Assembly (NCBI GenBank): GCA_020632075.1
Contig: JACKGH010000001.1
Location: 1 to 40,132, forward strand
Direction: 5' to 3'
Source: Candidatus Nomurabacteria bacterium
GTDB lineage: Bacteria > Patescibacteriota > Minisyncoccia > Phycocordibacterales > UBA918
DNA: 40,132 bases
The notes under the pieces are model-generated. The model ran no database searches and was not told the origin of the DNA. It saw only the letters and a program-made list of their open reading frames with translations. Positions 6,499 to 33,487 of the stretch are shown piece by piece (the first letter of the stretch is position 1; each line of letters starts with the position of its first letter). The translations under genes and the position numbers were made by a program.

Positions 6499-7044
6499 AT
6501 GAATCTAATCGGTGGACAATTTGTGATACCTGAAGTGGTATCATCGCATTTTCATTTAAAAGAAGGTGATCTGGTGGCAGATTTTGGAGCGGGAAGCGGC
6601 TTCTTTCTTAGTCCGCTTTCAAAAGCAGTCGGTGATACCGGTCGAGTCTTTGCGTGCGAGATCCAAAAACAGTTGGTAGAGAAGTTGGGTGAAACCGCAC
6701 AGGCACAAGGATTGTCAAATATTCACCCACTTTGGTGTGATCTGGAGGAACCAAATGGTATTAAGATCAGTACCGGAGAACTTGATGCTGCAATACTGGT
6801 GAATACCCTCTTCATTCTCGAAGATAAAGCCGCCGCACTGACTGAAATGGCACGTACGATCCGGAGTGGGGGTAAATTCTTTATCATCGACTGGACTGAA
6901 TCATTTGCCGGTATGGGACCACAGCCAGGACAAGTAGTCACTGCAGCTGATGCAACTGCGTTACTTGAAAGTCATGGGTTTGTGTTTGAGCATGATTTCC
7001 CGACCGGTGACCATCATTATGGTTTAGCGTTCCGTAAGGTATGA
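6499..7044 (+). CDS. class I SAM-dependent methyltransferase
   Basis: 181 aa with the SAM motif I VADFGAGSGFF. Its stop overlaps the next start (ATGA). Confidence 0.8.
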   Translation: MNLIGGQFVIPEVVSSHFHLKEGDLVADFGAGSGFFLSPLSKAVGDTGRVFACEIQKQLVEKLGETAQAQGLSNIHPLWCDLEEPNGIKISTGELDAAILVNTLFILEDKAAALTEMARTIRSGGKFFIIDWTESFAGMGPQPGQVVTAADATALLESHGFVFEHDFPTGDHHYGLAFRKV

Positions 7045-8357
7045 AACTCCGACCATTTGAACTAGGCTTGGTCATCGTTTTCGCTGGTCTGGCGATCGGT
7101 GCTCTGATCTTGCTGACCTCGTACAAGGGTGATGGTGATGACCCAGATGGGCCGGTTGATGTAGGTACTGTTGAGATCTGGGGCACTTTGCCAGCAGAGG
7201 GCATCAATGCATTATTGGGTGAGCTGACTAGTGATATTGAGGAGTATCGGTATGTGTCGTATACACACTTCACTCCAGAAGCATTTGATCAAAAACTACT
7301 TACCGCATTGGCTGATGGGGTAGGTCCAGATCTTATTTTGGTTTCTCATGAGAAGTTGGCAGAAATGCGAGGTCGAATCCAGCCTATACCATATGAGGGA
7401 GAGGGGTTGATCTTCCCGCTGCGGGATATTCGTGACCAATACTTGGAGGGGGCACAGATCTTTGCTTTGTCAGACGGGCTGTACGGCTATCCGATCGCAG
7501 TTGACCCACTAATGATGTATTGGAATCGAGACATTCTGGCGACAGAAGGATTCCTGACACAGCCGCAAACGTGGGAAAACCTAGTCAATACAGTCTTACC
7601 TCGCTTAGTCAAACGAGACTTTGATCGTACGATTGAACGGAGTGTGGTGGCAATGGGCGAATACCAGAATATTAGAAACGCATTCGGTATCATATCTATG
7701 TTGTTGATTCAGGGTGGAACCTCTGGTGTGGTTGAAGATGGAGGTCGGTACAGCATCCAGTTACAAAATTCACCAGGCAGTTTGGTGAACCCTCTGGAAC
7801 AAACGGTCGACTTCTACACGCGTTTCAGTAAACCAAACAACAGTTGGTATTCATGGAATCGTTCTTTTGGTGAGGATCGTCAGCAGTTTGTCGCTGAAGA
7901 TCTGGTGTTGTACTTTGGGTATGGTAGCGAGGCTCCAGTTATCGGGCGTATTAATCCAAATCTCAACTTTGATATTGCTGAAGTGCCACAAGGGGAAGCT
8001 GCGACCGTGCGTCGAACCTACGGTAAGTTCTATGCTTTATCGCTACTGAAATCAACTGACAATTTGAGTGGTGCGTACCAGGTTTGGCAACATCTTGGAC
8101 AGCCTGATCTCTCAGCGCGGATAGCGTTGGCGAGTAATATGGTCCCGGCGTATCGCAGTCTTGTTGCAGCGGGCAGTAATGACACGTACGGTAGAGTTAC
8201 GTATCAGTCTGCTTCGATCGCATATGGCTGGTTGAACCCTGACCTCGATCAAGCAGATAAGATTCTTGAGACCATGGTGGAAGATGTGAATGAGAATCGG
8301 TACAGTTTCTCGTCGGCTGCATCTGACGCATCAGCCAGATTACAACAAGCGTTCTGA
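7041..8357 (+). CDS. membrane-anchored extracellular solute-binding-like protein (no ABC permease or ATPase nearby)
   Basis: 438 aa with an N-terminal TM helix. Overall resemblance to family-1 sugar-binding proteins, judged by eye only. Confidence 0.5.
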   Translation: MKLRPFELGLVIVFAGLAIGALILLTSYKGDGDDPDGPVDVGTVEIWGTLPAEGINALLGELTSDIEEYRYVSYTHFTPEAFDQKLLTALADGVGPDLILVSHEKLAEMRGRIQPIPYEGEGLIFPLRDIRDQYLEGAQIFALSDGLYGYPIAVDPLMMYWNRDILATEGFLTQPQTWENLVNTVLPRLVKRDFDRTIERSVVAMGEYQNIRNAFGIISMLLIQGGTSGVVEDGGRYSIQLQNSPGSLVNPLEQTVDFYTRFSKPNNSWYSWNRSFGEDRQQFVAEDLVLYFGYGSEAPVIGRINPNLNFDIAEVPQGEAATVRRTYGKFYALSLLKSTDNLSGAYQVWQHLGQPDLSARIALASNMVPAYRSLVAAGSNDTYGRVTYQSASIAYGWLNPDLDQADKILETMVEDVNENRYSFSSAASDASARLQQAF

Positions 8358-8375
8358 TATACTTAAAACAAACGT

Positions 8376-8735
8376 ATGAAAAAAGCCAACTCACTTTTCA
8401 CCAGTCTGTACACCTTTGCTCTAGTGTTCGGACTTCCAGTTGTTGCCGCAGCAGCTGATTTTTCTTGGACGGTCGAGAACCTTACTAAGTTCCCAGACCT
8501 TAAAACACTACTTCTCGGCATTCTCAACGTCTTCGTGGTGATCGCAACTCCGATCGTGGTGCTATTTATCATTTACTCTGGCTTTTTGTATGTGACAGCG
8601 CGTGGTAACCCGCAACAGCTCGAACAAGCGACACGTTCACTTACCTATTCGATCATTGGCGGGATACTCATTCTTGGTGCTGTTGCCTTCGCGGCAATTC
8701 TGCAGAATCTCATCAATGCCTTCGCGGCTCCGTAA
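8376..8735 (+). CDS. T4SS-type pilin (TrbC/VirB2-like), paralog 1, with signal peptide
   Basis: 119 aa. Signal peptide, then two hydrophobic helices joined by the loop ARGNPQQ. This is the typical two-helix pilin hairpin. Confidence 0.7.
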   Translation: MKKANSLFTSLYTFALVFGLPVVAAAADFSWTVENLTKFPDLKTLLLGILNVFVVIATPIVVLFIIYSGFLYVTARGNPQQLEQATRSLTYSIIGGILILGAVAFAAILQNLINAFAAP

Positions 8736-8746
8736 GCAATAATCGT

Positions 8747-9016
8747 ATGGGATCTAAAGAACTTACAAATCCACTCGCGTTTGCAAGTATTACTGATTTT
8801 CTTGCCGCAGTCTTGCAGGTGTTCATCATTATGGCGACCCCGATCGTTATCTTTTTCTTGATCTATGCTGGATTTTCATATGTCACTGCCCGTGGCAATC
8901 CAGCAAAGATCGAGCTGGCGAGTAAGTCGTTGCTCTACGGCGCAATTGGCGGAGTGGTAATACTTGGCTCAGTTGCGATTATGACCATTATTAAGAACCT
9001 GGTGGCTGCATTCTAG
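8747..9016 (+). CDS. T4SS-type pilin (TrbC/VirB2-like), paralog 2
   Basis: 89 aa. The segment ATPIVIFFLIYAGFSYVTARGNPAK closely parallels paralog 1. Confidence 0.7.
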   Translation: MGSKELTNPLAFASITDFLAAVLQVFIIMATPIVIFFLIYAGFSYVTARGNPAKIELASKSLLYGAIGGVVILGSVAIMTIIKNLVAAF

Positions 9017-9041
9017 TCAGTCGATCATTAACTAATACTTT

Positions 9042-9296
9042 ATGCCTCCAACAACGTACGCGGGTCTAGTAAATGAAGTAATAAATATCATCAACCTTGC
9101 TATACCGGCACTGTTTGGTTTTTTGTTTCTCTACTTCATGTGGAAAATGATCGACACGTGGATCCTACATGCTGGTGATCCAAATCAAATCGATGATGGG
9201 AAGAAGTATGCTATGGCTGCGGTGGTGGTCTTTGTGCTTGCGATCATCACCTACGGGCTTATCAGACTGATCAGAAATTCATTGTTTGGTGTGTAG
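9042..9296 (+). CDS. pilin-like two-helix membrane protein, paralog 3 (divergent)
   Basis: 84 aa, two TM helices with the loop HAGDPNQ. Confidence 0.55.
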   Translation: MPPTTYAGLVNEVINIINLAIPALFGFLFLYFMWKMIDTWILHAGDPNQIDDGKKYAMAAVVVFVLAIITYGLIRLIRNSLFGV

Positions 9297-9363
9297 TGAA
9301 AAGCACTTGTGCCGTGTATAACTACATTGTGTGCTTGTAATTATCAATTTATACTGTATCGTA

Positions 9364-9382
9364 AACGTTATAACGTTATAAT
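9364..9382 (+). promoter_or_regulatory. 14-bp perfect palindrome abutting a TATAAT box upstream of pilin paralog 4
   Basis: AACGTTATAACGTT (9364-9377) runs into TATAAT (9377-9382). Confidence 0.3.
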
Positions 9383-9400
9383 TTATTCATAAAAATACGT

Positions 9401-9781
9401 ATGAAAAAGATTGCATATCTAACCGGTTCGCTTGCGACATTGGCTCTGCCAATGGTAGCGGGTGCGCAGGGTATTACAAAAGCTGGTGGTAATCTTGGTG
9501 GTTTTGAGATCATCATCACCAACATCACCAATGCTATTACTACCTACCTATTGCCGTTTGTTCTTGCGTTGGCATTCATCGCATTTGCCTGGGGTATGTT
9601 CCAGTACTTCATCGCTGGCGGTGCTAACGAAGAAGCAAAAGAAAAGGGTAAGAGTTTGATGATCTACGGTGTACTTGGATTCGTTATGATCCTTATCTTG
9701 TGGGGTCTGGTGAACTTCCTGGTAAACTTCACAGGTTTAGGTGGTGATGTTGTTGTACCGCCAGTCGTGCCAAAGATCTAA
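9401..9781 (+). CDS. T4SS-type pilin-like protein, paralog 4, with signal peptide
   Basis: 126 aa. Signal peptide plus two TM helices with the loop AGGANEE. Confidence 0.6.
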   Translation: MKKIAYLTGSLATLALPMVAGAQGITKAGGNLGGFEIIITNITNAITTYLLPFVLALAFIAFAWGMFQYFIAGGANEEAKEKGKSLMIYGVLGFVMILILWGLVNFLVNFTGLGGDVVVPPVVPKI

Positions 9782-9810
9782 TCTTTCTAAAGCTTTTGGA
9801 ATTCCAAACA

Positions 9811-9833
9811 AAAGGCCGCGAAGCGGCCTTTTG
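9811..9833 (+). terminator. intrinsic terminator
   Basis: GGCCGC-gaa-GCGGCC followed by TTTTG. Confidence 0.7.
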
Positions 9834-9880
9834 TCTTGATAACTAGATTGCAGTATTGTCTGTTGTGTTAAAATTTTGCT

Positions 9881-10219
9881 ATGACACCACAAGAAAAGGC
9901 TGCAGCAGAAGCTGCTAGCTTTGTCGCGAAATTCAATAAGATCATTTTATTTCCAACCATCGCACTCCTGAGCGCGGTGGCATTCTTAGTGTTCCTTTGG
10001 GGTCTGGCTGAATACTTCATGAATGCAAATAATGAGCAGGCTAGACAGCAGGGAGTGAAACATATCACGTGGGGGATCATTGGTTTGGTGGTGATGATCT
10101 CGGCGTACGCGATTCTCACGGTTGCGGCTAACACCATTGGTATTGGTACGCAGCTGAAGTGTGCGACTGATCCAAGTCAACCTGGTTGTGGAGCTGCGTT
10201 TACTATTCCTGGTCCGTAG
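9881..10219 (+). CDS. pilin-like two-helix membrane protein, paralog 5
   Basis: 112 aa, two TM helices with the loop NANNEQ and a Cys-containing tail. Confidence 0.55.
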   Translation: MTPQEKAAAEAASFVAKFNKIILFPTIALLSAVAFLVFLWGLAEYFMNANNEQARQQGVKHITWGIIGLVVMISAYAILTVAANTIGIGTQLKCATDPSQPGCGAAFTIPGP

Positions 10220-10231
10220 GGAAGGGATCGA

Positions 10232-10276
10232 CAAAAGAAAAGGGCCGAAGCAGCAAGCTGCTTCGGCCCTATTTGG
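10232..10276. terminator. bidirectional terminator hairpin between convergent genes
   Basis: GGGCCGAAGCAGC-aa-GCTGCTTCGGCCC, with an A-rich run on one side and a T-rich run on the other. Confidence 0.65.
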
Positions 10277-10317
10277 TAGGACCCCTCAAACAAGAGGAGT
10301 TAAAGAACGTTGGAGAC

Positions 10318-11817
10318 TCAGCGTTGCTGTCGTATCAGAAAGCGTACGCCGGGTTGTCCCATAGCAAGCGCGACCGCTTCGATTGGACCTTCTTCGTCAG
10401 CTTTCTGTCTTGGCTTTGGTGTTAGTCGATGGATGTTCTGGGTTGAGCCCGGAACCTGCCACGGATACAGAAAGTTCACAAATTCCTCGGGATACTTGCC
10501 GGCAAGGTAATACTTCTCATCATCGGTATTTGTTACCAGACTGATGATCAGAGGCTTGCCGGCAACCTTCGGATACAACTGCAATTCCTCACCTCCTTGG
10601 CAGATGGTGAGCGTGCGTCCCCGTTCGTCAAACTTGTAATGCTCGACGCTTGCGGGGGTTGCGCAGCTGTCCGCCATTGCGACGGCTGTGCTAAACGAAA
10701 GGCCGTTCATAACTCCGGCCACGTTCAGTGCGATGACGGCAACAGCAGCCAGGAGGCTAGAGAAGCCCAAAGCAACGATGACTGCAGCCAGATTGATACC
10801 GTAGTCTTTGGATTCCTCTTTCGAGTCACTCCCAGACTTTTTCTTCCGAGGGATGATGCGCCACACAACGATGGTGCCGACCACGATCAGGCCGGCGACC
10901 CACCAGGGCATGTGAATCCTTTCCTCGACCCAGCTGATTGCCGGGTGTTTGGATATTGCACCATTTACGGTGCTGCCCCAGGTTTTGGCGTTCTGCCCCT
11001 GAACATCTTCGGTCGTGATGGGTACGAGCCGTACCCCATCCTTGGGATGGAAGCAGGTACCCTTGGTGGCGTAGTCGAACCCTTTTGCGGGGTATTCGAT
11101 GAGCACGCCTTCGATGTACTCTGAACGGCACATCTCCGGAGTGTAGTCACCAACCACCTCCCTCGTCACCGGATGAACCATGCGAATGGCTTCTCCGTTA
11201 GCGAAGTTTTTGCCAGGGTACTGGGGGAAGATGGCGATCCAGGCCGCGAAGATCGAAGCCAGGATTGCGTAGCCGAGGATGAATTTCCAGGCGACGCTGC
11301 CGTCGACATTGTAGTGTTGCAATGCCAGCAGGCCAAGCAAGACTGCCCAGAACATGATCCCGAACGAACCGATTGAGTGCTCAAACGGGAAGGTCATCAG
11401 CGTGAATCCAGCGACTACGGCGAGTAGCATGAAGGCGATGACAATCCGCATCCAGAGCAGAAGTCCTTGGAATACACCCTTGGACTTATCCTTGTCCTGT
11501 AGGAAGTGGGCGATAAGCCCGAAGACGCCAAATGCTAAAAGGTTGGTAACCTTGACGCCAGCCATCAGAATCATGAAGAACCCGATGAGCATGACGGCGG
11601 AGTTTACAAAGGGGTGGATGTAGACGTTTACGAGCAACATCACCACCACCAACCCGAGGACTGCCATAATGCTGAACAGTCCAGCCATGAAGATCTTGGT
11701 GAAGTTGTGAGTGATGAAGTTGCCCCAATCCTCAGTCGAGCTGTTGGAGTCTGGGACGACCACGTCGTCTTCGTCGGGGGCTCTGAAAGCCCAGGTCAGT
11801 TTTTTGAGCAGATTCAT
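10318..11817 (-). CDS. hypothetical polytopic membrane protein, 499 aa (about 8 TM, two soluble domains)
   Basis: SD is GGAGA 8 nt upstream and overlaps the stop of the upstream gene. Six N-terminal TM helices, a soluble domain of about 100 aa, two more TM helices, and a C-terminal domain of about 120 aa. No family recognised. Confidence 0.7.
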   Translation of the reverse strand: MNLLKKLTWAFRAPDEDDVVVPDSNSSTEDWGNFITHNFTKIFMAGLFSIMAVLGLVVVMLLVNVYIHPFVNSAVMLIGFFMILMAGVKVTNLLAFGVFGLIAHFLQDKDKSKGVFQGLLLWMRIVIAFMLLAVVAGFTLMTFPFEHSIGSFGIMFWAVLLGLLALQHYNVDGSVAWKFILGYAILASIFAAWIAIFPQYPGKNFANGEAIRMVHPVTREVVGDYTPEMCRSEYIEGVLIEYPAKGFDYATKGTCFHPKDGVRLVPITTEDVQGQNAKTWGSTVNGAISKHPAISWVEERIHMPWWVAGLIVVGTIVVWRIIPRKKKSGSDSKEESKDYGINLAAVIVALGFSSLLAAVAVIALNVAGVMNGLSFSTAVAMADSCATPASVEHYKFDERGRTLTICQGGEELQLYPKVAGKPLIISLVTNTDDEKYYLAGKYPEEFVNFLYPWQVPGSTQNIHRLTPKPRQKADEEGPIEAVALAMGQPGVRFLIRQQR

Positions 11818-11831
11818 CTATATTTCTCCTG

Positions 11832-12773
11832 TTAGCTGAGAAGTCTGTAGAAAAATCTGCGGATAGGTGACCATCTTGCCACTTCCGCACGATTTTTCGC
11901 TGCTTGTGTGCGGATGTGGTTGTTGATAGAAGCTCCGACGAGCTTCAGTTTATCGAAGCTGTCAGGAACGAACTCGTCGATCAGATCCAGAGTCTTTTTG
12001 TTGGGCATCAGCGGCACACCGAGTGCGTGCATGTATGCGACAGCGGCTTTGAAGCCGTCCTCGCGTTTACCTTTGACGCTTCTCTTGGTGCTTTCGCTTT
12101 CAGCCTTCTTGACGACCGAAACGATATGCTTGAGAAACCTTACGGTGTTTTTCGATTCCCCTTTGTACAGGTCCTCGCTTACCGTAGTCGTTTCCGTATC
12201 GAGCGGAACAGGCTTTTTATTCGCCTTCGGATCTTTTGGGTTCTGTGCCTTCGGATCTTTGCCGTTGGCCGCCTTCTGACCTTTGTTCTCGGTGGACTCA
12301 GGTTGTTTACCTGGTTCCTCATCTGCAACATTGGTTTCAAGCGGCCTGTCTTCTTCGGAAAAGCCCGGGAGTTTGACGGCGGTGACCACTTTCTTGGTGC
12401 CGACTTTCTTTGAAGCCGAATCCAGTCCGGTGACTGCCACTCGGAACTTATTCATCTGTGCAAAGGCAATTGCGGCCTTCACCCAGCTCCGGGGGTTTTC
12501 ACTGCTGCCGAAATGGTAGTGAATGAGGCCTACCAGAATCTCCTGGTCCTCCTCATCCAGTTCGAGAACAGCTCGAATGAACTTGATCTCGTCCCCATAA
12601 CCGGTAAGTCCAACGCGAAGTTTTTCTTCCGGCGGCAGGGAAGGGTCCACATCGGTCCGCTTTCCCACGACGCCCTTGAGGACATCGAAGACCGCATAGA
12701 TCTCGCCCCAATGGTCTTTAAGGAAGCTTACGACCTTTCGGGTCGCAGTTGTGTCAATGACTTTTGCTGCCAT
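11832..12773 (-). CDS. hypothetical protein, 313 aa, with a central Lys/Pro/Glu-rich disordered segment
   Basis: Start taken at ATG 12773, preceded by GGAGA 7 nt upstream. First gene of a two-gene operon. No family recognised. Confidence 0.65.
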   Translation of the reverse strand: MAAKVIDTTATRKVVSFLKDHWGEIYAVFDVLKGVVGKRTDVDPSLPPEEKLRVGLTGYGDEIKFIRAVLELDEEDQEILVGLIHYHFGSSENPRSWVKAAIAFAQMNKFRVAVTGLDSASKKVGTKKVVTAVKLPGFSEEDRPLETNVADEEPGKQPESTENKGQKAANGKDPKAQNPKDPKANKKPVPLDTETTTVSEDLYKGESKNTVRFLKHIVSVVKKAESESTKRSVKGKREDGFKAAVAYMHALGVPLMPNKKTLDLIDEFVPDSFDKLKLVGASINNHIRTQAAKNRAEVARWSPIRRFFYRLLS

Positions 12774-12832
12774 TTTTTGTCTCCAAATTGTCAAAAATTC
12801 ATTGAGAGGTAAGTCCTCTCTACCTGTTTTCT

Positions 12833-27892: not shown

Positions 27893-28600
27893 ATGAACGA
27901 TATATTCGCTGAAGAGAATAGTAAGGAAACAAAACAGCCTCCGAAGAGTCTTATTTTTACTGTCGTAGCCGTCGTTATTGGTTCTGTTGTGGGAGGATTT
28001 GTTTACGACGCAGTTTTAAAAGAGGCGATTTTTGGTCCAGAACAAAAGCCCTATAGGGAGATAACGTACGATGAGCCAGTTAGTGACGACGGGAAAATTG
28101 TTTCTTCTGACGATCCTGATGGTTGGGTTTTGTACAGAACTGAAGATAGAGGTTTTGAAGTGCTGTTTCCAACTAAACCAGAATATCAGATGGGTTCTCA
28201 ACTCGTAGCGGGTACTGATGTCACTGTGAGAGTTCACATTTATTCTTCTGAGGCGGATAAACTCTTCTACGTGGTGGGGGCTAATACTATTCCTGTAGAT
28301 GATAACGAACCAATAGAGTGGGGTCGTACTGATTTAGACAATATGGTTCAAGGGACGTTGAACAATATTCCGTATGCTCGGGTAACAGGTAAGGAATATG
28401 TTGATTTTAATGGCATTGAAGCCGTTGACTTGAAAACAGTAGACGATCAGTTGGGTTACCACCTTCGATATTTCATGTTTGGTTACGGTGACAAAACTTA
28501 TTCACTTGGGGTTGTTTCAGAGGAGGGCGCTATCCCAGAAAGGGACTTCAAAAAGTTCACTGAGTCATTCAACTTAATTCATCAAGATTTAACTGATTAA
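27893..28600 (+). CDS. hypothetical membrane-anchored secreted protein, 235 aa
   Basis: One N-terminal TM helix followed by a beta-rich domain. TGCTACTCT lies 7 nt upstream of the ATG, with no SD. Confidence 0.65.
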   Translation: MNDIFAEENSKETKQPPKSLIFTVVAVVIGSVVGGFVYDAVLKEAIFGPEQKPYREITYDEPVSDDGKIVSSDDPDGWVLYRTEDRGFEVLFPTKPEYQMGSQLVAGTDVTVRVHIYSSEADKLFYVVGANTIPVDDNEPIEWGRTDLDNMVQGTLNNIPYARVTGKEYVDFNGIEAVDLKTVDDQLGYHLRYFMFGYGDKTYSLGVVSEEGAIPERDFKKFTESFNLIHQDLTD

Positions 28601-28655: not shown

Positions 28656-28660
28656 GGATG

Positions 28661-28743
28661 TGCGCCGAGTTGGATTCGAACCAACGTAGACATAAGTCAA
28701 CGGATTTACAGTCCGTCGCGATTGACCACTCCGCCATCGACGC
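28661..28743 (-). tRNA. tRNA-Tyr (anticodon GTA), long variable arm
   Basis: Acceptor GCGTCGA/TCGGCGC (one G-U pair), anticodon stem ACGGA/TCCGT, loop CTGTAAA, T-loop TTCGAAT. Confidence 0.9.
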
Positions 28744-28836
28744 AGGTCTATGTAATTGTGACTTGCTTAAACAAGTTGCACTAAAATACCACAACTGATT
28801 GCTTTTTCAAAGCCTCTGCATGGTATTATTTTGGTA

Positions 28837-29871
28837 ATGAAAAAATATTACATCCCATTTTTTGTGTTTGCGTTGTTGGTGGTGCCAACCGCCGCGTCAG
28901 CTGCTGGATTCATTCCTTGTGGTGGTGATGGACAGCCAGAGTGTCAGGCCTGCCATTTTGTTGAGTTGGGCAACAAGCTTATCGTTTGGCTTATCGGAAT
29001 TTTGATGGTGGTGTTTGCTTTTATCATGGCAACTGCTGGCTGGGGTCTAGTGACTTCTGGCGGGAATCCTCAAGCAAAGACCGCCGCAAAGGATAAGTTC
29101 ACCAATGCGATCATTGGTCTCGTGATCGTACTGGCTGCATGGCTGTTGATCGATACGCTCATGAAAATGCTTCTTACTCCTGGCGCAAAGAGTCTTACAA
29201 CGCTTGGTCCGTGGAATCAGGTTGAGTGTACCAAGCAACCAGAGGTCAAGGCTGCGACGGTGGCGTGGGGTGGTGATCCTGGTAGTTTGTATGGTAATTC
29301 AGAAGTAGTATCGACAGCAGTGTGTTTGACGGCGAACTGTGTCGACGAGATCGCAGCCTGTGAAGATAAAGGTTTGATTGCTGAACGAGACATTCCGACC
29401 AACAAGGTTAATTGCTGGGACATCAAGGTGGGGGCACCCGCTCCGCTTACCGGTACTCCGCCGATTGCGTGTAGTGGTGGTGAGTGTACTGACTTGACTG
29501 GTTTGGTACCTTGTAAGGCTGGTTCAGGCTGTTCGATTTCTCCAGATATGGCACTGAAACTGGCCGATTTTCACGCTGACGCTGCAGTGGCAGGGGCGCG
29601 TATTACAGAGGCTATGCCCCCAACTCGCACACACCGATCATCATGCCACACCGAAGGGACCTGTATTGACTACAGTAAGGTTGGTGGTATGACCCCAGCA
29701 GAGGTGAACAGTGTGATTGCGTCAGCTGTCGCAAACGACCTTCGTCCGGTGTATGAGGTTGGCACACCTGCTGAGAAGCAAGCTTTGGTTGACGGTGGTG
29801 TACCGGCTGAGTATATCAAGACACTCGGAAGTCATATTTCAGCACCACACTTCTCGATCTACGGATATTAG
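28837..29871 (+). CDS. secreted fusion protein: Cys-motif T4SS-pilin-like two-helix module plus a C-terminal H-x6-D...H (LAS/M15-like) putative peptidoglycan peptidase
   Basis: Signal peptide. The pilin-type segment reads CGGDGQPECQACHF...VTSGGNPQAK...LAAWLLIDTLMKMLL. The C-terminus has CHTEGTCID (His codon 29647-29649, Asp codon 29668-29670) and GSHISAPHFSIYGY. It is a paralog of the C-terminal third of the next gene. Confidence 0.8.
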   Translation: MKKYYIPFFVFALLVVPTAASAAGFIPCGGDGQPECQACHFVELGNKLIVWLIGILMVVFAFIMATAGWGLVTSGGNPQAKTAAKDKFTNAIIGLVIVLAAWLLIDTLMKMLLTPGAKSLTTLGPWNQVECTKQPEVKAATVAWGGDPGSLYGNSEVVSTAVCLTANCVDEIAACEDKGLIAERDIPTNKVNCWDIKVGAPAPLTGTPPIACSGGECTDLTGLVPCKAGSGCSISPDMALKLADFHADAAVAGARITEAMPPTRTHRSSCHTEGTCIDYSKVGGMTPAEVNSVIASAVANDLRPVYEVGTPAEKQALVDGGVPAEYIKTLGSHISAPHFSIYGY

Positions 29872-29891
29872 GAAAGAGGGAAAAGAAATAC

Positions 29892-29923
29892 AAAGGGCCG
29901 GGCGCTTCGCGCCCGGCCTTTTG
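29892..29923 (+). terminator. intrinsic terminator (GGCCGGGCGC family)
   Basis: GGCCGGGCGC-ttc-GCGCCCGGCC followed by TTTTG. An identical hairpin occurs at 33236-33258. Confidence 0.75.
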
Positions 29924-30030: not shown

Positions 30031-33000
30031 ATGTTCAGTATTAAAAACCTCTCTCGTATTATTGGTTTGATGACGCTCGTGTTACTGCTGGTGCCGTTTG
30101 CTGATGTGCAAGCTGCTTGTTCGCGCGGTGTCATAAGCGCAAATCCACAGAGCATTAGTGAAGGCATTGATTCACGGCTCACCTGGCTCATTAATGATGC
30201 GTACATCGGCATGGTAACTGGTGTAAACGTCACAGGGTTTGGTAGTGTCGGCCCGGCTGGTGCCCCAACGGTGAATCCGGCAGTGACGACCACTTACACC
30301 ATGACAGCTAGTTTTAACGACGGTGTAGTCGAGAGTTGTTCAGCTACGGTGTACGTGGGAGAGGAAGCTCCTGACTTTGGTAGTATTGAGCTGCTCGATC
30401 AGCTTTTTACGCCTGACTCTGAAAATCAATGGTTTAAGCCTTGGGATAGTCCGTATACAGAGGCTGATCTTAAATCAGATGATAATGGCCGCTTGGTAAA
30501 TGTAACCGTGCAGAATAAAGTGGTCGGTGCTGGTGAAGGTAGTATATACCCGATCTTCGTATTGAGAGATAGTCAAGGGACATTGGTTGATCTGGTATAC
30601 GGTGACATGGAAAAAGCGACACAGAAATACGTTTTTTCTGATGATGTGAATACGTATCCAGCCGGAACCCCCGTAGTGCAAAATGATGATGGAACGGTTA
30701 CTTCAGAATATAAGATACTCAAGACAGGTGAAGCGTATGAATTTACTGGAATGGCGTTTGATAAAACCCAGGTCGATCTGCCGCAGGTTTTTAATGTGAT
30801 CAATGAGATCACAGGTACTGGTGAGATCCCTGAAGGTGCTGGCTTACCACCACAGAGCACAGTATTCACAATGGTGCTTTCAAATGGTGGTGTGATACAG
30901 CCAGACGGTTCCGTGTGTCCTGATCCTGCGTGTGCAGTCAATGACGCTGACGGCATTCCTGCTGGACCGGGTGCCCCCGCAACCCCGATCGACCTGGCAG
31001 ACCCAGCTGATCCAGTAAACCCAGTGCAGCCGGCTCCAGCTCCCAATGTAACTCCGATGCAACAGATGGTACCGATCGGTGCTCCAAAACCGTGTGTTGA
31101 CCCAGGCTTTAATGGTTGGATGTGTCTTAAGTTGCGATATGGTGCAACCCCATACACAGTAACTGCTCGCTACAATCTGACTGCTGGAGGGCAGACTGAT
31201 ACGGTGATCTGGTTCTCGGGCGGCGGGGGTACAACAATTAATAGGACCGTTTCTGGCGGAGCCGCTGTGCAGGATAGATTGGCAGCTGAAAATGTACGCT
31301 CTATCGATATTCAATTCACAAATACAGATCCAGATATCTGGAGTAGTGGTACTCTCAATCCGACGTTGGCTGGGCTGCCTGACAAGTCTGCCTTGGTTGC
31401 TTCCATTACAGATTACTTAGTTGATAATGGTTTCACGGCTGGAAAAAAAGCTAAAATTGCAGCCGGTAGCTTTGGTACATTGCTTACAAGTTATGCTCTT
31501 GCGTACCATGGTCTTGAGAGTAATGTCGACGAGGTCGTGCTGTCTTCAGGTCCGATGGGATTCAGTTTTTCTCAGGAATTGCATGATGTAAGTTCCCCAA
31601 TATATCTTGATCCTTCTGTTAAGCTGGGTCCAACTCCGGTGGTTGATATTGTTAAAGCAGCTAATGCCTGGAATGTGATACCTGCTTGTAATCCGGGAGT
31701 GACACCGTGTCCAGAGAACGACGCTGTCTCAATGTTTGATGCTACGGGAGTACCGTTTCCTGGCGTTGATGTTGTGTATCCGGGAGTGGAAGTCCATACA
31801 ATTTTGGGAGGGAAAGACGTGCCATGGTTTTTGGCTTCAAATGCATATTGGAATGTGCGTATAAGTGCAGCAGCACGAACAACAGATATATTTCCAAGTC
31901 TTGGTCACGATTTATACTTCAATAGTGACGTACAAGATTTGGTTGTAAATTATTTAGTGGCAATGAGCCCGAGCGATCCGATCAACCCCGCTAATCCAGC
32001 CAACCCCGCCAACCCCGCTAATCCAGCCAACCCCGCCAACCCCGCTAATCCAGCCAACCCAGGAGACTCTGCGAATCCTGCCAACCCTGGAGACCCTGCA
32101 AACCCAGTCAATCCTGGAGATCCAGCGCCAGTGCCGCTCGCGCCAGATCCTTCGATTGCGCTTAACAATAGCTCTTTTTCAAGTGTCTCTTCTTTGCCTC
32201 CTGCTCCACCGGTAGGGAGTGCGCCCGCTGATGGAGGATTAGTCCCTTGTGGTGGTCCAGGTGAGGAGCCGTGTAAAAGCTGTCATGTGGTACAGCTTGT
32301 GAACAATGTTTCTAAGTGGTTGGTCGGGATCATGATGATTGTCTTTGCGATCATGGTGGTTGTCTCTGGTATCTTGCTTACTTCGTCAACCGGTAATCCT
32401 GAAATGAAGGTTGCAACGAGGCGTCGTATTGCCAATGCTGCGGTGGGCCTCATTATTGTGCTGGCGGCTTGGATACTAATTGATACGGTCATGAAAATAT
32501 TGCTTAAGACCGGTCCAGGAAGCTTGGGTCCATGGAACGAGATCCAGTGTACAGTACAGCCGCTCGTGAATGATGCAATGTACGCTTGGGGCGGTGATCC
32601 AAGTAACCTGTATGGAAACTCTTCAGTGATCGATACTACACTTTGTGCTGCCGGTGCGGGTGGGAACACTGACTGTGAAGCTTTGATCAATAATTGTCAG
32701 CGTAGTGGCTATACACCGACAGTTGATAAGAGCAATCCGGCAAATTACGTTGTGAACTGTATTGAATTGCGTGTTGGTTCTCCAGCCCCTCTGCCAGGAG
32801 CAACGCCAGTTTCGTGTTCTGGTAGTGAGTGTACACCACTTGATCCAGCAATGTGTAAGGATCTGAATAGTTGCTCGATCTCACCTGACCTGCAACCGAA
32901 GCTCGATAGTATGCATACCGCAGTTGCTGCACTTGGTGGTCGTGTTTCTGAGGCTATGCCACCGACGTACAATCATATTTCAAAGTGTCACAACAATGGT

Positions 33001-33213
33001 ACTTGTATTGATTACAGTAAGGTTGGTGGTTTCGATGCTGGTGAAATCAATGCAGTGATTGCGGCAGCAGTAGCGAATGATCTTCGACCAGTGTATGAAG
33101 TGCATACTGAGGCTGATAAAAAAGTGCTCGTAGAAGCAGGTGTGCCAGCTGAGTACATTGTTTCGCTTGGCAGTCACATTTCTGCACCGCACTTCTCGAT
33201 CTACGGATATTAG
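30031..33213 (+). CDS. 1060-aa secreted mosaic surface protein (Ig-like, alpha/beta-hydrolase-like, PANPAN linker, internal pilin module, LAS/M15-like peptidase)
   Basis: Signal peptide ending VQA. The motif AGSFG (Ser codon 31468-31470) and GHDLYF (His codon 31906-31908) suggest a Ser/His hydrolase. The pilin module is at about 32233-32508 (CGGPGEEPCKSCH...STGNPEMK...). The C-terminus carries CHNNGTCID...GSHISAPHFSIYGY. Confidence 0.85.
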   Translation: MFSIKNLSRIIGLMTLVLLLVPFADVQAACSRGVISANPQSISEGIDSRLTWLINDAYIGMVTGVNVTGFGSVGPAGAPTVNPAVTTTYTMTASFNDGVVESCSATVYVGEEAPDFGSIELLDQLFTPDSENQWFKPWDSPYTEADLKSDDNGRLVNVTVQNKVVGAGEGSIYPIFVLRDSQGTLVDLVYGDMEKATQKYVFSDDVNTYPAGTPVVQNDDGTVTSEYKILKTGEAYEFTGMAFDKTQVDLPQVFNVINEITGTGEIPEGAGLPPQSTVFTMVLSNGGVIQPDGSVCPDPACAVNDADGIPAGPGAPATPIDLADPADPVNPVQPAPAPNVTPMQQMVPIGAPKPCVDPGFNGWMCLKLRYGATPYTVTARYNLTAGGQTDTVIWFSGGGGTTINRTVSGGAAVQDRLAAENVRSIDIQFTNTDPDIWSSGTLNPTLAGLPDKSALVASITDYLVDNGFTAGKKAKIAAGSFGTLLTSYALAYHGLESNVDEVVLSSGPMGFSFSQELHDVSSPIYLDPSVKLGPTPVVDIVKAANAWNVIPACNPGVTPCPENDAVSMFDATGVPFPGVDVVYPGVEVHTILGGKDVPWFLASNAYWNVRISAAARTTDIFPSLGHDLYFNSDVQDLVVNYLVAMSPSDPINPANPANPANPANPANPANPANPANPGDSANPANPGDPANPVNPGDPAPVPLAPDPSIALNNSSFSSVSSLPPAPPVGSAPADGGLVPCGGPGEEPCKSCHVVQLVNNVSKWLVGIMMIVFAIMVVVSGILLTSSTGNPEMKVATRRRIANAAVGLIIVLAAWILIDTVMKILLKTGPGSLGPWNEIQCTVQPLVNDAMYAWGGDPSNLYGNSSVIDTTLCAAGAGGNTDCEALINNCQRSGYTPTVDKSNPANYVVNCIELRVGSPAPLPGATPVSCSGSECTPLDPAMCKDLNSCSISPDLQPKLDSMHTAVAALGGRVSEAMPPTYNHISKCHNNGTCIDYSKVGGFDAGEINAVIAAAVANDLRPVYEVHTEADKKVLVEAGVPAEYIVSLGSHISAPHFSIYGY
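31975..32125 (+). repeat. in-frame tandem repeat encoding (PAN)n / PANPGD
   Basis: The 27-bp unit AACCCCGCTAATCCAGCCAACCCCGCC occurs at 31984-32010 and again at 32011-32037. A third partial copy follows, then degenerate PANPGD units. Confidence 0.9.
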
Positions 33214-33231
33214 AGACAAAAGCTGAAACAC

Positions 33232-33263
33232 AAAAGGCCGGGCGCTTCGCGCCCGGCCTTTTG
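33232..33263 (+). terminator. intrinsic terminator (GGCCGGGCGC family)
   Basis: GGCCGGGCGC-ttc-GCGCCCGGCC followed by TTTTG. Confidence 0.75.
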
Positions 33264-33267
33264 TGTT

Positions 33268-33416
33268 TGCGGGTCCACGAGGACTCGAATCTTACAGATT
33301 CTGTGCAGCGTTTGGATATTTTGTTCGCAAGCTCCAAAATATCTCAAACCGCTTTTCGAGCCCTCGGGCAGTCATTTGAAAAAACCAACCACAAGGGTTG
33401 ATTCTTTCAAATAATG
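33268..33416 (-). repeat. tRNA-linked element: conserved long hairpin plus a 22-nt duplicate of the tRNA-Trp 3' end
   Basis: 33268-33289 is identical to 33415-33436. The hairpin at 33308-33352 has the same GATATTTTG/CAAAATATC core and the loop GAGCTTGCGAA as the tRNA-Leu copy. The outer stem base pairs covary between the two copies. A separate small terminator (CAACC-cttgt-GGTTG plus a T-run, 33378-33400) lies between the tRNA and the element. Confidence 0.5.
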
Positions 33417-33487
33417 CGGGTCCACGAGGACTCGAACCTCGGCCGACGGTTTTGGAGACCGTTGTTCTACCACTAAACTATAGACCC
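33417..33487 (-). tRNA. tRNA-Trp (anticodon CCA)
   Basis: Acceptor GGGTCTA/TGGACCC, discriminator G73, anticodon stem ACGGT/ACCGT, loop CTCCAAA, T-loop TTCGAGT. Confidence 0.9.

Follow-up and report, generated by a model that had tools for sequence, protein, structure and literature searches.

The window analysed here is a stretch of 40,132 nucleotides from a Candidatus Nomurabacteria bacterium (GenBank assembly GCA_020632075.1, contig JACKGH010000001.1, positions 1 to 40,132 of the forward strand), and the gene of interest is the one that occupies 30031..33213 (+), an uninterrupted, ATG-initiated open reading frame (ORF) in the ORF listing with a product of 1060 residues. Taken as a whole, with its topology, action and origin, this product is probably best explained as a modular VirB2-type pilin that is exported by the Sec pathway and tethers envelope hydrolases. 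The explanation draws on domain identities established at fold level, on residue conservation, on a gene duplication, on synteny and on the recurrence of the architecture among relatives. A first-pass annotation of the window had described a mosaic surface protein in which a pilin module lies between a lipase-like and a cell-wall peptidase-like domain; its interval, domain order and motif positions were all recovered as given.

Domain architecture of the 1060-residue protein

The following features were delimited within the gene (residue numbers in brackets).

30031..30114, +: Sec-type signal peptide (1-28), hydrophobic core at residues 6-25, ending VQA/AC
30115..30360, +: Ig-like domain (29-110), Cys30 and Cys103 conserved
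30361..30933, +: beta-rich domain of unassigned fold (111-301), common only to the homologues P0087 and P0104
30934..31080, +: Pro-rich linker (302-350), at the junction of the parts resembling the homologues P0087 and P0086
31081..31965, +: alpha/beta-hydrolase domain (351-645), from an AlphaFold2 model and Foldseek
31468-31470, 31816-31818 and 31906-31908, +: putative catalytic triad S480, D596 and H626, from model position and conservation
31966..32235, +: (PAN)n or Pro-rich stalk linker (646-735), 29% Pro
32236..32550, +: complete VirB2-type pilin module (736-840), with PF18895, two transmembrane helices, the basic loop TSSTGNPEMKVATRRR and a four-Cys frame
32551..32805, +: Cys-rich N-subdomain (841-925), modelled with high confidence as a small beta/alpha unit
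32806..33213, +: LAS-fold zinc-peptidase-like core (926-1060) and stop codon, from Foldseek and conservation
32989-32991, 33010-33012 and 33190-33192, +: putative zinc ligands H987, D994 and H1054, invariant in 76 homologues

The pilin module proposed by the first-pass annotation was confirmed by profile hidden Markov model (HMM) search. Residues 753-819 matched the Pfam family T4SS_pilin (PF18895) with an E-value of 8.8e-11 and 42.2 bits, above the gathering cut-off of 26.6, and a weaker match was obtained to the Mbov_0395 pilin-like conjugal transfer family of NCBIfam (E 1.3e-6); PF04956 (TrbC/VirB2) was also matched by 25 of the 76 close relatives. The module opens with the Cys motif LVPCGGPGEEPCKSCH at residues 737-752 (LVPCGG...C..CH), which is followed by two hydrophobic segments, at about residues 756-783 and 798-822 (hydropathy peaks at 756-790 and 798-827), joined by STGNPEMK (786-793) and modelled as helices at residues 750-785 and 790-824. 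The inter-helix loop, TSSTGNPEMKVATRRRI, contains four basic residues and one acidic residue. Together with a distal Trp and Cys, the motif forms a frame (C740, C748, C751 ... W835-x4-C840) whose four cysteines were invariant in 76 close and 54 more distant relatives. Stand-alone pilins of 129-143 residues carry the identical C-x7-C-x2-C...W-x4-C frame, indicating that the 1060-residue protein embeds a whole mature pilin of a Cys-framed sub-type. VirB2/TrbC pilins are typically small proteins that begin directly after a signal peptide, a feature not seen here, where about 705 mature residues precede the hairpin. No hydrophobic signal lies beside the hairpin in the 1060-residue protein, although both its upstream paralogue (see below) and the stand-alone pilins do start after a signal peptide. 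A 9/27-bp tandem DNA repeat at 31983-32120 underlies the (PAN)n stretch that leads into the module; its first three 27-bp units are 100% identical, so that slippage could vary the length of the stalk.

For the C-terminal domain, the first-pass annotation had proposed a LAS/M15 (VanY/VanX-type) peptidase. An AlphaFold2 model of residues 730-1060 was obtained with a mean predicted local distance difference test score (pLDDT) of 88.5, and its comparison with the PDB by Foldseek placed LAS zinc peptidases at seven of the top nine ranks, as listed here.

Ranks 1-3: MepA, E 6.7e-4 to 3.6e-3, probability 1.0
Ranks 5, 6 and 8: LdcB/VanY-like, probability 0.47-0.69
Rank 9: Streptomyces Zn DD-peptidase (1lbu), probability 0.44
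Ranks 4 and 7: unrelated, root-mean-square deviation at least 18 A

MepA was the sole PDB fold match at E <= 0.001, and those sub-threshold matches that had true structural overlap were likewise LAS peptidases. The first motif follows a pattern shared with MepA, in which GGR...H110-A-S-H113-Q-T-G-L-D-V-D120 corresponds to GGR971...H982-I-S-K-C-H987-N-N-G-T-C-I-D994. This motif ends in CHNNGTCID (residues 986-994), and the distal putative ligand, H1054, lies in SHISAPHF (1048-1055). In the 76-sequence alignment (39-55% identity) H987, D994, H1054, H982 and E974 were invariant and R971 was nearly so. The H-x6-D...H spacing that had been noted in the first pass was therefore upheld for H987, D994 and H1054, whereas H1049 of the SHISAPHF stretch is not conserved and is a Trp in the family consensus W-I-S-A-P-H-F-S. 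The LAS fold was likewise upheld by the MepA match; membership of M15 was not, as no match to the Pfam M15, VanY or M74 families was obtained at E <= 10 for any of the 76 members, and none was found in NCBIfam or PHROGs. Searches of the family profile against PDB sequences returned nothing, and Foldseek comparison of the C-terminal model with viral structures (BFVD) gave nothing useful. On the model, our reading is that the domain is LAS-fold and zinc-peptidase-like and forms a family of its own, M15 membership not being demonstrated.

This family is mostly found in much smaller proteins. A search with residues 825-1060 returned 80 proteins, nearly all of 290-400 residues and consisting of a signal peptide, a pilin and the LAS-like domain, and of the 225 proteins fetched, 133 had both the pilin and the LAS-like domain according to local HMMs. 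About half of the pilin-LAS homologues (query cover 56-62%) either lack the Cys-rich N-subdomain or have a different version of it. A profile scan of genome contigs found one further locus, the distant L002. Its ORF (9287-10390, 367 residues) combines an N-domain rich in Cys with an internal hairpin resembling a pilin and with a LAS-like tail (KCHNNGTCVD ... GDHLHIR), whose C-terminal GDHLHIR represents the canonical HxH; it is located on a contig of a metagenome-assembled genome labelled 'uncultured Gammaproteobacteria'. Either this contig was mis-binned or the LAS-like pilin family extends past the Patescibacteria.

The middle domain was modelled from a nine-sequence alignment with a pLDDT of 88.4 and a predicted TM-score of 0.90. 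In the PDB, Foldseek identified 1103 structures that matched at E <= 1e-3 (best E 4.7e-10), every one of which was an alpha/beta hydrolase, with TM-scores of 0.6-0.69 (normalised by target) and identities of 11-18%; no match was found in Pfam, NCBIfam or PHROGs. The alpha/beta-hydrolase fold suggested in the first pass was thus confirmed by structure. Its label 'lipase-like' was not retained, since the top fold matches were feruloyl/cinnamoyl esterases and CE7 acetyl-xylan esterases as well as monoacylglycerol lipases, making carbohydrate and phenolic esterases equally represented; 'lipase' is too specific, and a fold cannot give the substrate class. In the model S480, within AGSFG (residues 478-482), forms the nucleophile elbow exactly where strand 474-478 turns into helix 480-492, and the loops behind strands 582-593 and 612-621 contain D596 and H626 (within GHD, 625-627), respectively, which is the canonical order; an oxyanion-type SGGGG is located at residues 396-400. 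About ten relatives of the domain were present among the best 150 matches listed from an exhaustive HMMER search of 1.84 billion representatives. H626 was kept in all ten homologues and D596 in eight, the other two having Glu and Ser (n=10 only), and six of the ten, the closest relative included, combined G-S-x-G/S with an x-G-G-x-G oxyanion-type loop. As modelled, the domain of the 1060-residue protein carries every hallmark of an active serine hydrolase. The architectures of its relatives were as follows.

P0086 and P0088-P0091: alpha/beta-hydrolase domain N-terminal, pilin near the C-terminus
P0101 and P0109: pilin N-terminal, then Ig repeats, alpha/beta-hydrolase domain C-terminal
P0177 and P0225: alpha/beta-hydrolase domain stand-alone

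PF18895 was present in every fused relative, and this hydrolase family is almost always fused to the pilin module. Two profile scans of metagenome contigs for the domain found nothing. A word-indexed search with the N-terminal 660 residues, and likewise with the alignment of the hydrolase domain, yielded almost no homologues; the relatives came solely from the exhaustive HMMER search.

At the N-terminus, the homologues P0087 and P0104 share the mature start A-C-(S/K)-R with the 1060-residue protein. The Ig-like assignment of the first pass was borne out by BLASTP matches of residues 34-109 to PKD/I-set-type repeats of P0081-P0084 and by a PHROG match of the same residues to an Ig-like segment of a phage virion protein (E 1.2e-7). 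A lipoprotein reading of Cys30 was considered and rejected, as the residue at -3 is Gln and Cys30 is conserved together with Cys103 inside the Ig-like domain. Residues 111-301 share 35-42% identity with the same region of P0087 (875 residues) and P0104 (909 residues), and no match to them was found in Pfam, PDB or PHROG.

Locus, origin and the wider class of pilin fusions

The features of the window that bear on the origin of the gene and on its possible partners are listed below.

8376-10219, +: five small, divergent PF18895 pilin genes (84-126 residues) in a tandem array, with a GNP-type loop and without the four-Cys frame
28660-28743 and 33416-33487, -: tRNA-Tyr and tRNA-Trp, flanking the two-gene pilin-fusion locus (the 28831-29871 gene and the 1060-residue gene)
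28831..29871, +: tandem paralogue, pilin and LAS-like, 346 residues (344 from an ATG two codons in), PF18895 E 3e-10
29891..29923, no strand assigned: terminator-like hairpin after the paralogue, core GGCCGGGCGCTTCGCGCCCGGCC
33226..33268, no strand assigned: terminator-like hairpin after the 1060-residue gene, core GGCCGGGCGCTTCGCGCCCGGCC

The paralogue directly upstream is 53% identical to residues 730-1060, and the two copies were mutual nearest neighbours and neighbour-joining sisters among the 76 homologues. The GC-rich core of the terminator-like hairpins is identical behind both genes and occurs only these two times in the window, and the last 40 or so coding bases of the two genes are almost identical, far above the 53% identity of the proteins. 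These identical hairpins and near-identical gene ends point either to tandem duplication with the terminator included or to gene conversion. The sister relationship of the copies and their identical terminator indicate that the 1060-residue gene arose by tandem duplication of a resident pilin-LAS gene.

The protein is also collinear with two other homologues: residues 27-298 with P0087 and residues 340-848 with P0086 (629 residues). The junction between the two falls in the Pro-rich linker, where mature P0086 starts. In both homologues the pilin hairpin is flanked by ectodomains, and the tails contain LAS-type motifs, one reading SHEEGFKLD...DHVDV and the other SCHYGRG...AVDF...NHTHIS. Their genes are adjacent in a relative (locus L008, 186-4733), directly upstream of miaA/ahpC and thus in the same slot as the present pair, that is, immediately upstream of miaA(-), ahpC, parB, relA and topA. 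The contents of this slot compare as follows.

Syntenic relatives: pilin-SLT gene, then pilin-LAS gene
L008: P0087 (Ig, beta-rich, FN3..., pilin and M15-like tail), then P0086 (alpha/beta-hydrolase domain, pilin and a different LAS-like tail)
This window: pilin-LAS gene, then 1060-residue gene

The gene accordingly looks like a three-part mosaic of P0087-type N-terminal modules, a P0086-type hydrolase-linker-pilin segment and the LAS tail of the resident paralogue, in which the ectodomains would have been acquired after the duplication. Further pilin-fusion genes were found in other relatives: L010 (456-3712) carries an Asp-type alpha/beta-hydrolase-FN3-pilin gene followed by a pilin-VanY (PF02557) gene, and L009 (224-5485) has three pilin-domain genes in a row, the last encoding a protein of 1142 residues (a pilin, seven Ig-like repeats and an alpha/beta-hydrolase domain). 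The P0109 gene lies in a row of pilin-domain genes. The different pairs of pilin-fusion genes found in the slot suggest a variable cassette locus for pilin-borne envelope enzymes. A tblastn search with the pilin-LAS module gave no match in the phage and plasmid collections, and a mobile-element origin is therefore not supported.

Pilin-enzyme fusions proved to be common in the lineage. Among the 54 pilin fusions that lack the LAS-like domain, Pfam assigned SLT to nine, SLT_3 to seven, Peptidase_M15_3 to four, and NlpC/P60 and Destabilase to two each, with one each of VanY, M15_4, M15_2, CHAP, Transglycosylas and Extensin-like_C. Judged by sequence, the modules carried by this pilin family are overwhelmingly peptidoglycan hydrolases, and the combination of a Cys-framed pilin with a peptidoglycan hydrolase appears to be a large, barely described class in Paceibacteria. 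The consecutive accessions PF18895 (T4SS_pilin) and PF18896 (SLT_3) suggest that curators had already met pilin-lysozyme proteins; no mention of enzyme-bearing VirB2 pilins was found in the open-access papers retrieved. Domains that flank the pilin on both sides also occur in P0086, P0087, P0169, P0203 and the L002 ORF. The full four-part architecture was found in no other protein among the best 150 matches listed, and the 1060-residue protein is a lineage-specific mosaic. The first-pass annotation was right to call the arrangement non-textbook; as a fusion of pilin and enzyme it is no one-off.

The small pilins at 8376-10219 are possible partner (major) pilins. They had been described in the first pass as sharing the architecture of the embedded module, which holds for the PF18895 hairpin; it does not hold for the Cys motif, since four of the five have no Cys and the fifth (9881-10219) has two C-terminal Cys outside the four-Cys motif. 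The gene directly upstream of this array (7041-8357) encodes a membrane-anchored product (transmembrane helix) with a weak MalE-like match (E 7.6e-6). Three ORFs beside the pilin array or the fusion locus, at 10318-11817 (-), 11832-12794 (-) and 27893-28600 (+), had no Pfam or NCBIfam match; one of them, of 235 residues, has a single N-terminal transmembrane helix.

The window also contains the housekeeping genes gyrA, clpB, infB, miaA, ahpC, parB, relA/spoT and topA and seven tRNAs, and resembles chromosomal DNA of the Patescibacteria/Paceibacteria type. The GC content of the 1060-residue gene is that of the rest of the window, and the closest homologues of the locus are in records of Candidatus Nomurabacteria, Parcubacteria and Paceibacterota. 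The Rfam search of the locus returned the flanking tRNA-Tyr and tRNA-Trp and nothing else, antisense ORFs within the gene had no support, and a promoter scan gave background level only. P0085, a 205-residue protein of the protein collection (equivalent to window 30031-30636), is 100% identical to residues 1-202 of the protein and closes with 'LMM'; truncation or a frameshift of a copy in another data set could account for it, as could a gene call at a contig end.

Predicted topology, proposed action and competing explanations

From the signal peptide and the positive-inside rule we infer that the hairpin has both of its flanks on the outer side of the membrane and its loop on the cytoplasmic side, and the 22 cysteines of the protein are consistent with an extracytoplasmic location. 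The sole membrane-embedded part would be the complete conjugation-type pilin hairpin. The Ig-like, beta-rich and alpha/beta-hydrolase domains and the proline-rich stalk of about 90 residues would be held outside the cytoplasmic membrane, as would the C-terminal zinc LAS-type domain, and the KVATRRR loop would face the cytoplasm, or the pilus lumen when the protein is polymerised. About 15 residues past the second helix, the LAS domain would cut peptidoglycan peptides near the surface of the membrane or of a pilus. The esterase and the binding modules, held out by the stalk, would act on an ester-linked envelope component farther off, either in the cell's own outer layers or in those of a host. 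In function, such pilin-hydrolase fusions may take the place of the wall hydrolases of VirB1/PrgK type that are anchored in the membrane in type IV secretion systems (T4SSs) of monoderms, a role that is put forward here as a proposal only. A function in host attack or in envelope remodelling is plausible.

Several results weigh against this explanation. Neither enzyme domain belongs by sequence to a curated family of Pfam, NCBIfam or PHROGs, and searches with the whole protein and with each segment against these collections and, as single sequences or profiles, against PDB sequences found no enzyme family. The TM-scores of the C-terminal model to LAS structures were modest (0.37-0.40, normalised by target). 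Alignment of the family profile with Escherichia coli MepA by hhalign was not significant (E 0.75), and alignment with the tails of Pfam-verified M15_3 pilin fusions was marginal (E about 0.01), with the register correct. The family has a single His where LAS peptidases carry their second motif (HxH or ExxH), and the zinc-site geometry at H987, D994 and H1054 is putative. In the middle domain, S480 is replaced by Asp (Y-D-Y-S), with an altered oxyanion loop (G-S-Y-F), in four of the ten homologues (P0088-P0091), indicating that catalysis is neither universal nor uniform across this hydrolase family; the sub-clade could use Asp-nucleophile chemistry or have lost activity. Neither the 40-kb window nor the sequence up to 10 kb from the syntenic loci contained a recognisable T4SS machinery gene (VirB4, VirB6 or other), so that the link to a T4SS or pilus is drawn solely from hairpin homology. 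The beta-rich domain at residues 111-301 falls outside the proposed explanation and is left unexplained by it. By the standard that the first-pass annotation had set for itself, namely structural matches of both enzyme domains and conservation of the four proposed catalytic residues, its reading was nevertheless not refuted: LAS and alpha/beta-hydrolase structural matches were found for the two domains, H626, H987 and D994 were invariant among the homologues, and Ser480 was kept in six of ten, among them the closest relative, and was Asp in the other four.

Two accounts of what such a protein does were rated about equal, each less likely than not, and are not mutually exclusive. In the first, the protein polymerises through its pilin module, as a minor or tip subunit, into a VirB2-like pilus of the small pilins, and is displayed there as a weapon that carries the esterase and the peptidase to the host surface, breaches the host envelope and scavenges wall or lipid components. 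The module is a full pilin of the type that also occurs alone, the five-gene array of small pilins lies within the same window, the long stalk linker and the Ig-like domain would suit a displayed subunit, and the domain content of the locus varies strongly among relatives, as that of host-interaction genes would. Both pilin termini are on the exterior in known F-type and VirB2-type pilus structures. A precedent for grafted modules, probably located at the tip, is provided by the modular pilins of type IV pili (PMC8179133). Set against this, no pilus has been demonstrated in the lineage and the machinery genes are missing nearby, as stated above; some 735 residues attached to one terminus and 220 to the other would be difficult to accommodate sterically in a helical filament; and nothing favours the host wall over the cell's own as the target.

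In the second account, the hairpin is a mere anchor, and the LAS domain, together with the neighbouring pilin-fused hydrolases, loosens the peptidoglycan of its own cell to allow growth, division or the passage of pili and secretion machines, as a housekeeping autolysin comparable to VirB1 or PrgK, the esterase stripping an ester modification from the cell's own wall polymers. It fits this account that a pilin-SLT and pilin-LAS pair occupies a conserved slot amid clpB ... miaA, ahpC, parB, relA and topA in several relatives, and the very short linker between hairpin and LAS domain would place the latter beside the cell's own membrane. It is also in line with reports that a recognisable VirB1 is absent from most Patescibacteria genomes with VirB2 homologues and that T4SSs of monoderms employ membrane-anchored, multi-domain wall hydrolases (PMC12102498). 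It leaves unexplained, however, why a full pilin fold persists, its four-Cys frame invariant, when one transmembrane helix would suffice, and it accounts neither for the Ig-like and beta-rich domains and the long stalk nor for how readily the fused domains are exchanged at this locus.

It is also conceivable, if unlikely, that one or both enzyme folds are pseudo-enzymes and that the protein is a non-catalytic adhesin binding wall peptides or lipids of the host. The Asp replacement and altered oxyanion region in four of the ten hydrolase relatives and the lack of the usual HxH or ExxH in the LAS domain would fit, and LAS domains of the Hedgehog type are known to function without peptidase activity. 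In the 1060-residue protein itself, however, the Ser-Asp-His triad is complete, as is the oxyanion-type loop SGGGG, and invariance of H987, D994, H1054, H982 and E974 in 76 sequences is what a working metal site shows.

An assembly chimera or a frameshift fusion of two genes, as might be suspected from the absence of the full architecture elsewhere among the matches listed and from the divergence of P0085 after residue 202, is very improbable, given that the ORF is uninterrupted and has its own terminator, that P0086 is collinear through the hydrolase-linker-pilin junction, that P0086, P0087, P0169 and P0203 likewise have domains on both sides of the pilin, and that the same 1060-residue protein was called with a 100% match on a separate NCBI contig (JAGQMK010000010.1, 12.4 kb; GCA_020428695.1).

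The explanation of the protein as a Sec-exported, hydrolase-tethering modular pilin may be carried one step further, although this step is doubtful: the VirB2-type pilus of Patescibacteria would be an enzyme-display filament, in or on which modular pilins bearing peptidoglycan hydrolases (SLT, LAS/M15, NlpC/P60) and, in the present case, an esterase drill through the host envelope.

Relation to known systems and significance

VirB2-like pilin arrays and T4SSs are known in Patescibacteria and are essential in one cultivated, genetically tractable species (PMC12102498, PMC12857230). The likeness of the present module to these VirB2/TrbC pilins (PF18895/PF04956) consists in the two-helix hairpin, the short basic loop and a PF18895 score above threshold, and the tandem array of five small pilins in the window resembles their arrays. 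It differs from them in that the pilin is internal, with about 735 residues before and about 220 after it, and belongs to the four-Cys sub-type; no enzyme-bearing pilins are mentioned in those two papers. With PrgK (pCF10), TraG (pIP501) and CwlT (ICEBs1) the protein would share the design of an extracytoplasmic, membrane-tethered wall hydrolase. Those enzymes pair glycan- and peptide-cutting activities, much as relatives of this locus pair a pilin-SLT with a pilin-LAS gene, but they have a single N-terminal transmembrane helix, are encoded inside T4SS operons and have no alpha/beta-hydrolase domain.

The predicted fold of the C-terminal domain and the invariant C-terminal His on its last strand are shared with MepA (M74), VanY/LdcB (M15B) and the Streptomyces Zn DD-peptidase (M15A), and the H-x2-G-x3-D first motif with its upstream GGR is shared with MepA. 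The family differs from these LAS peptidases in having no HMM-level similarity to them and a single His for HxH/ExxH, and it adds invariant H982 and E974, Cys-richness and the N-subdomain. The middle domain resembles feruloyl/cinnamoyl esterases, monoacylglycerol lipases and CE7 esterases in fold, nucleophile elbow and Ser-Asp-His order; it is set apart from known esterases and lipases by the low identity and lack of a Pfam match reported above, by the small size of its family and by the fusion to pilins. The closest parallel in design is found in type IV pili, where modular pilins are an established principle: PilB and PilC of Streptococcus sanguinis belong to a widespread group of diverse architectures that includes candidate phyla (PMC8179133). 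Type IV pilins form an unrelated superfamily with a class III signal peptide, and their modules are C-terminal only and mostly adhesive, whereas here a VirB2-type hairpin bears modules, among them predicted hydrolases, at both termini.

If the VirB2-type pilus does serve for enzyme display, this would help to explain why the T4SS and pilin array are essential for epibiotic growth and why VirB1 is usually absent, and the miaA-proximal slot would be a fast-evolving cassette locus that fits enzyme sets to host envelopes. The analysis defines two enzyme-fold families outside Pfam, a single-His LAS-like peptidase and a pilin-associated alpha/beta hydrolase, and extends the modular-pilin principle of type IV pili to conjugation-type pilins. 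It also provides concrete, testable candidates for the means by which ultrasmall epibionts breach a cell wall, be it their own or that of the host. The missing wall hydrolases of Paceibacteria may be fused to the pilins themselves, which would be a testable answer to the question of the missing VirB1.

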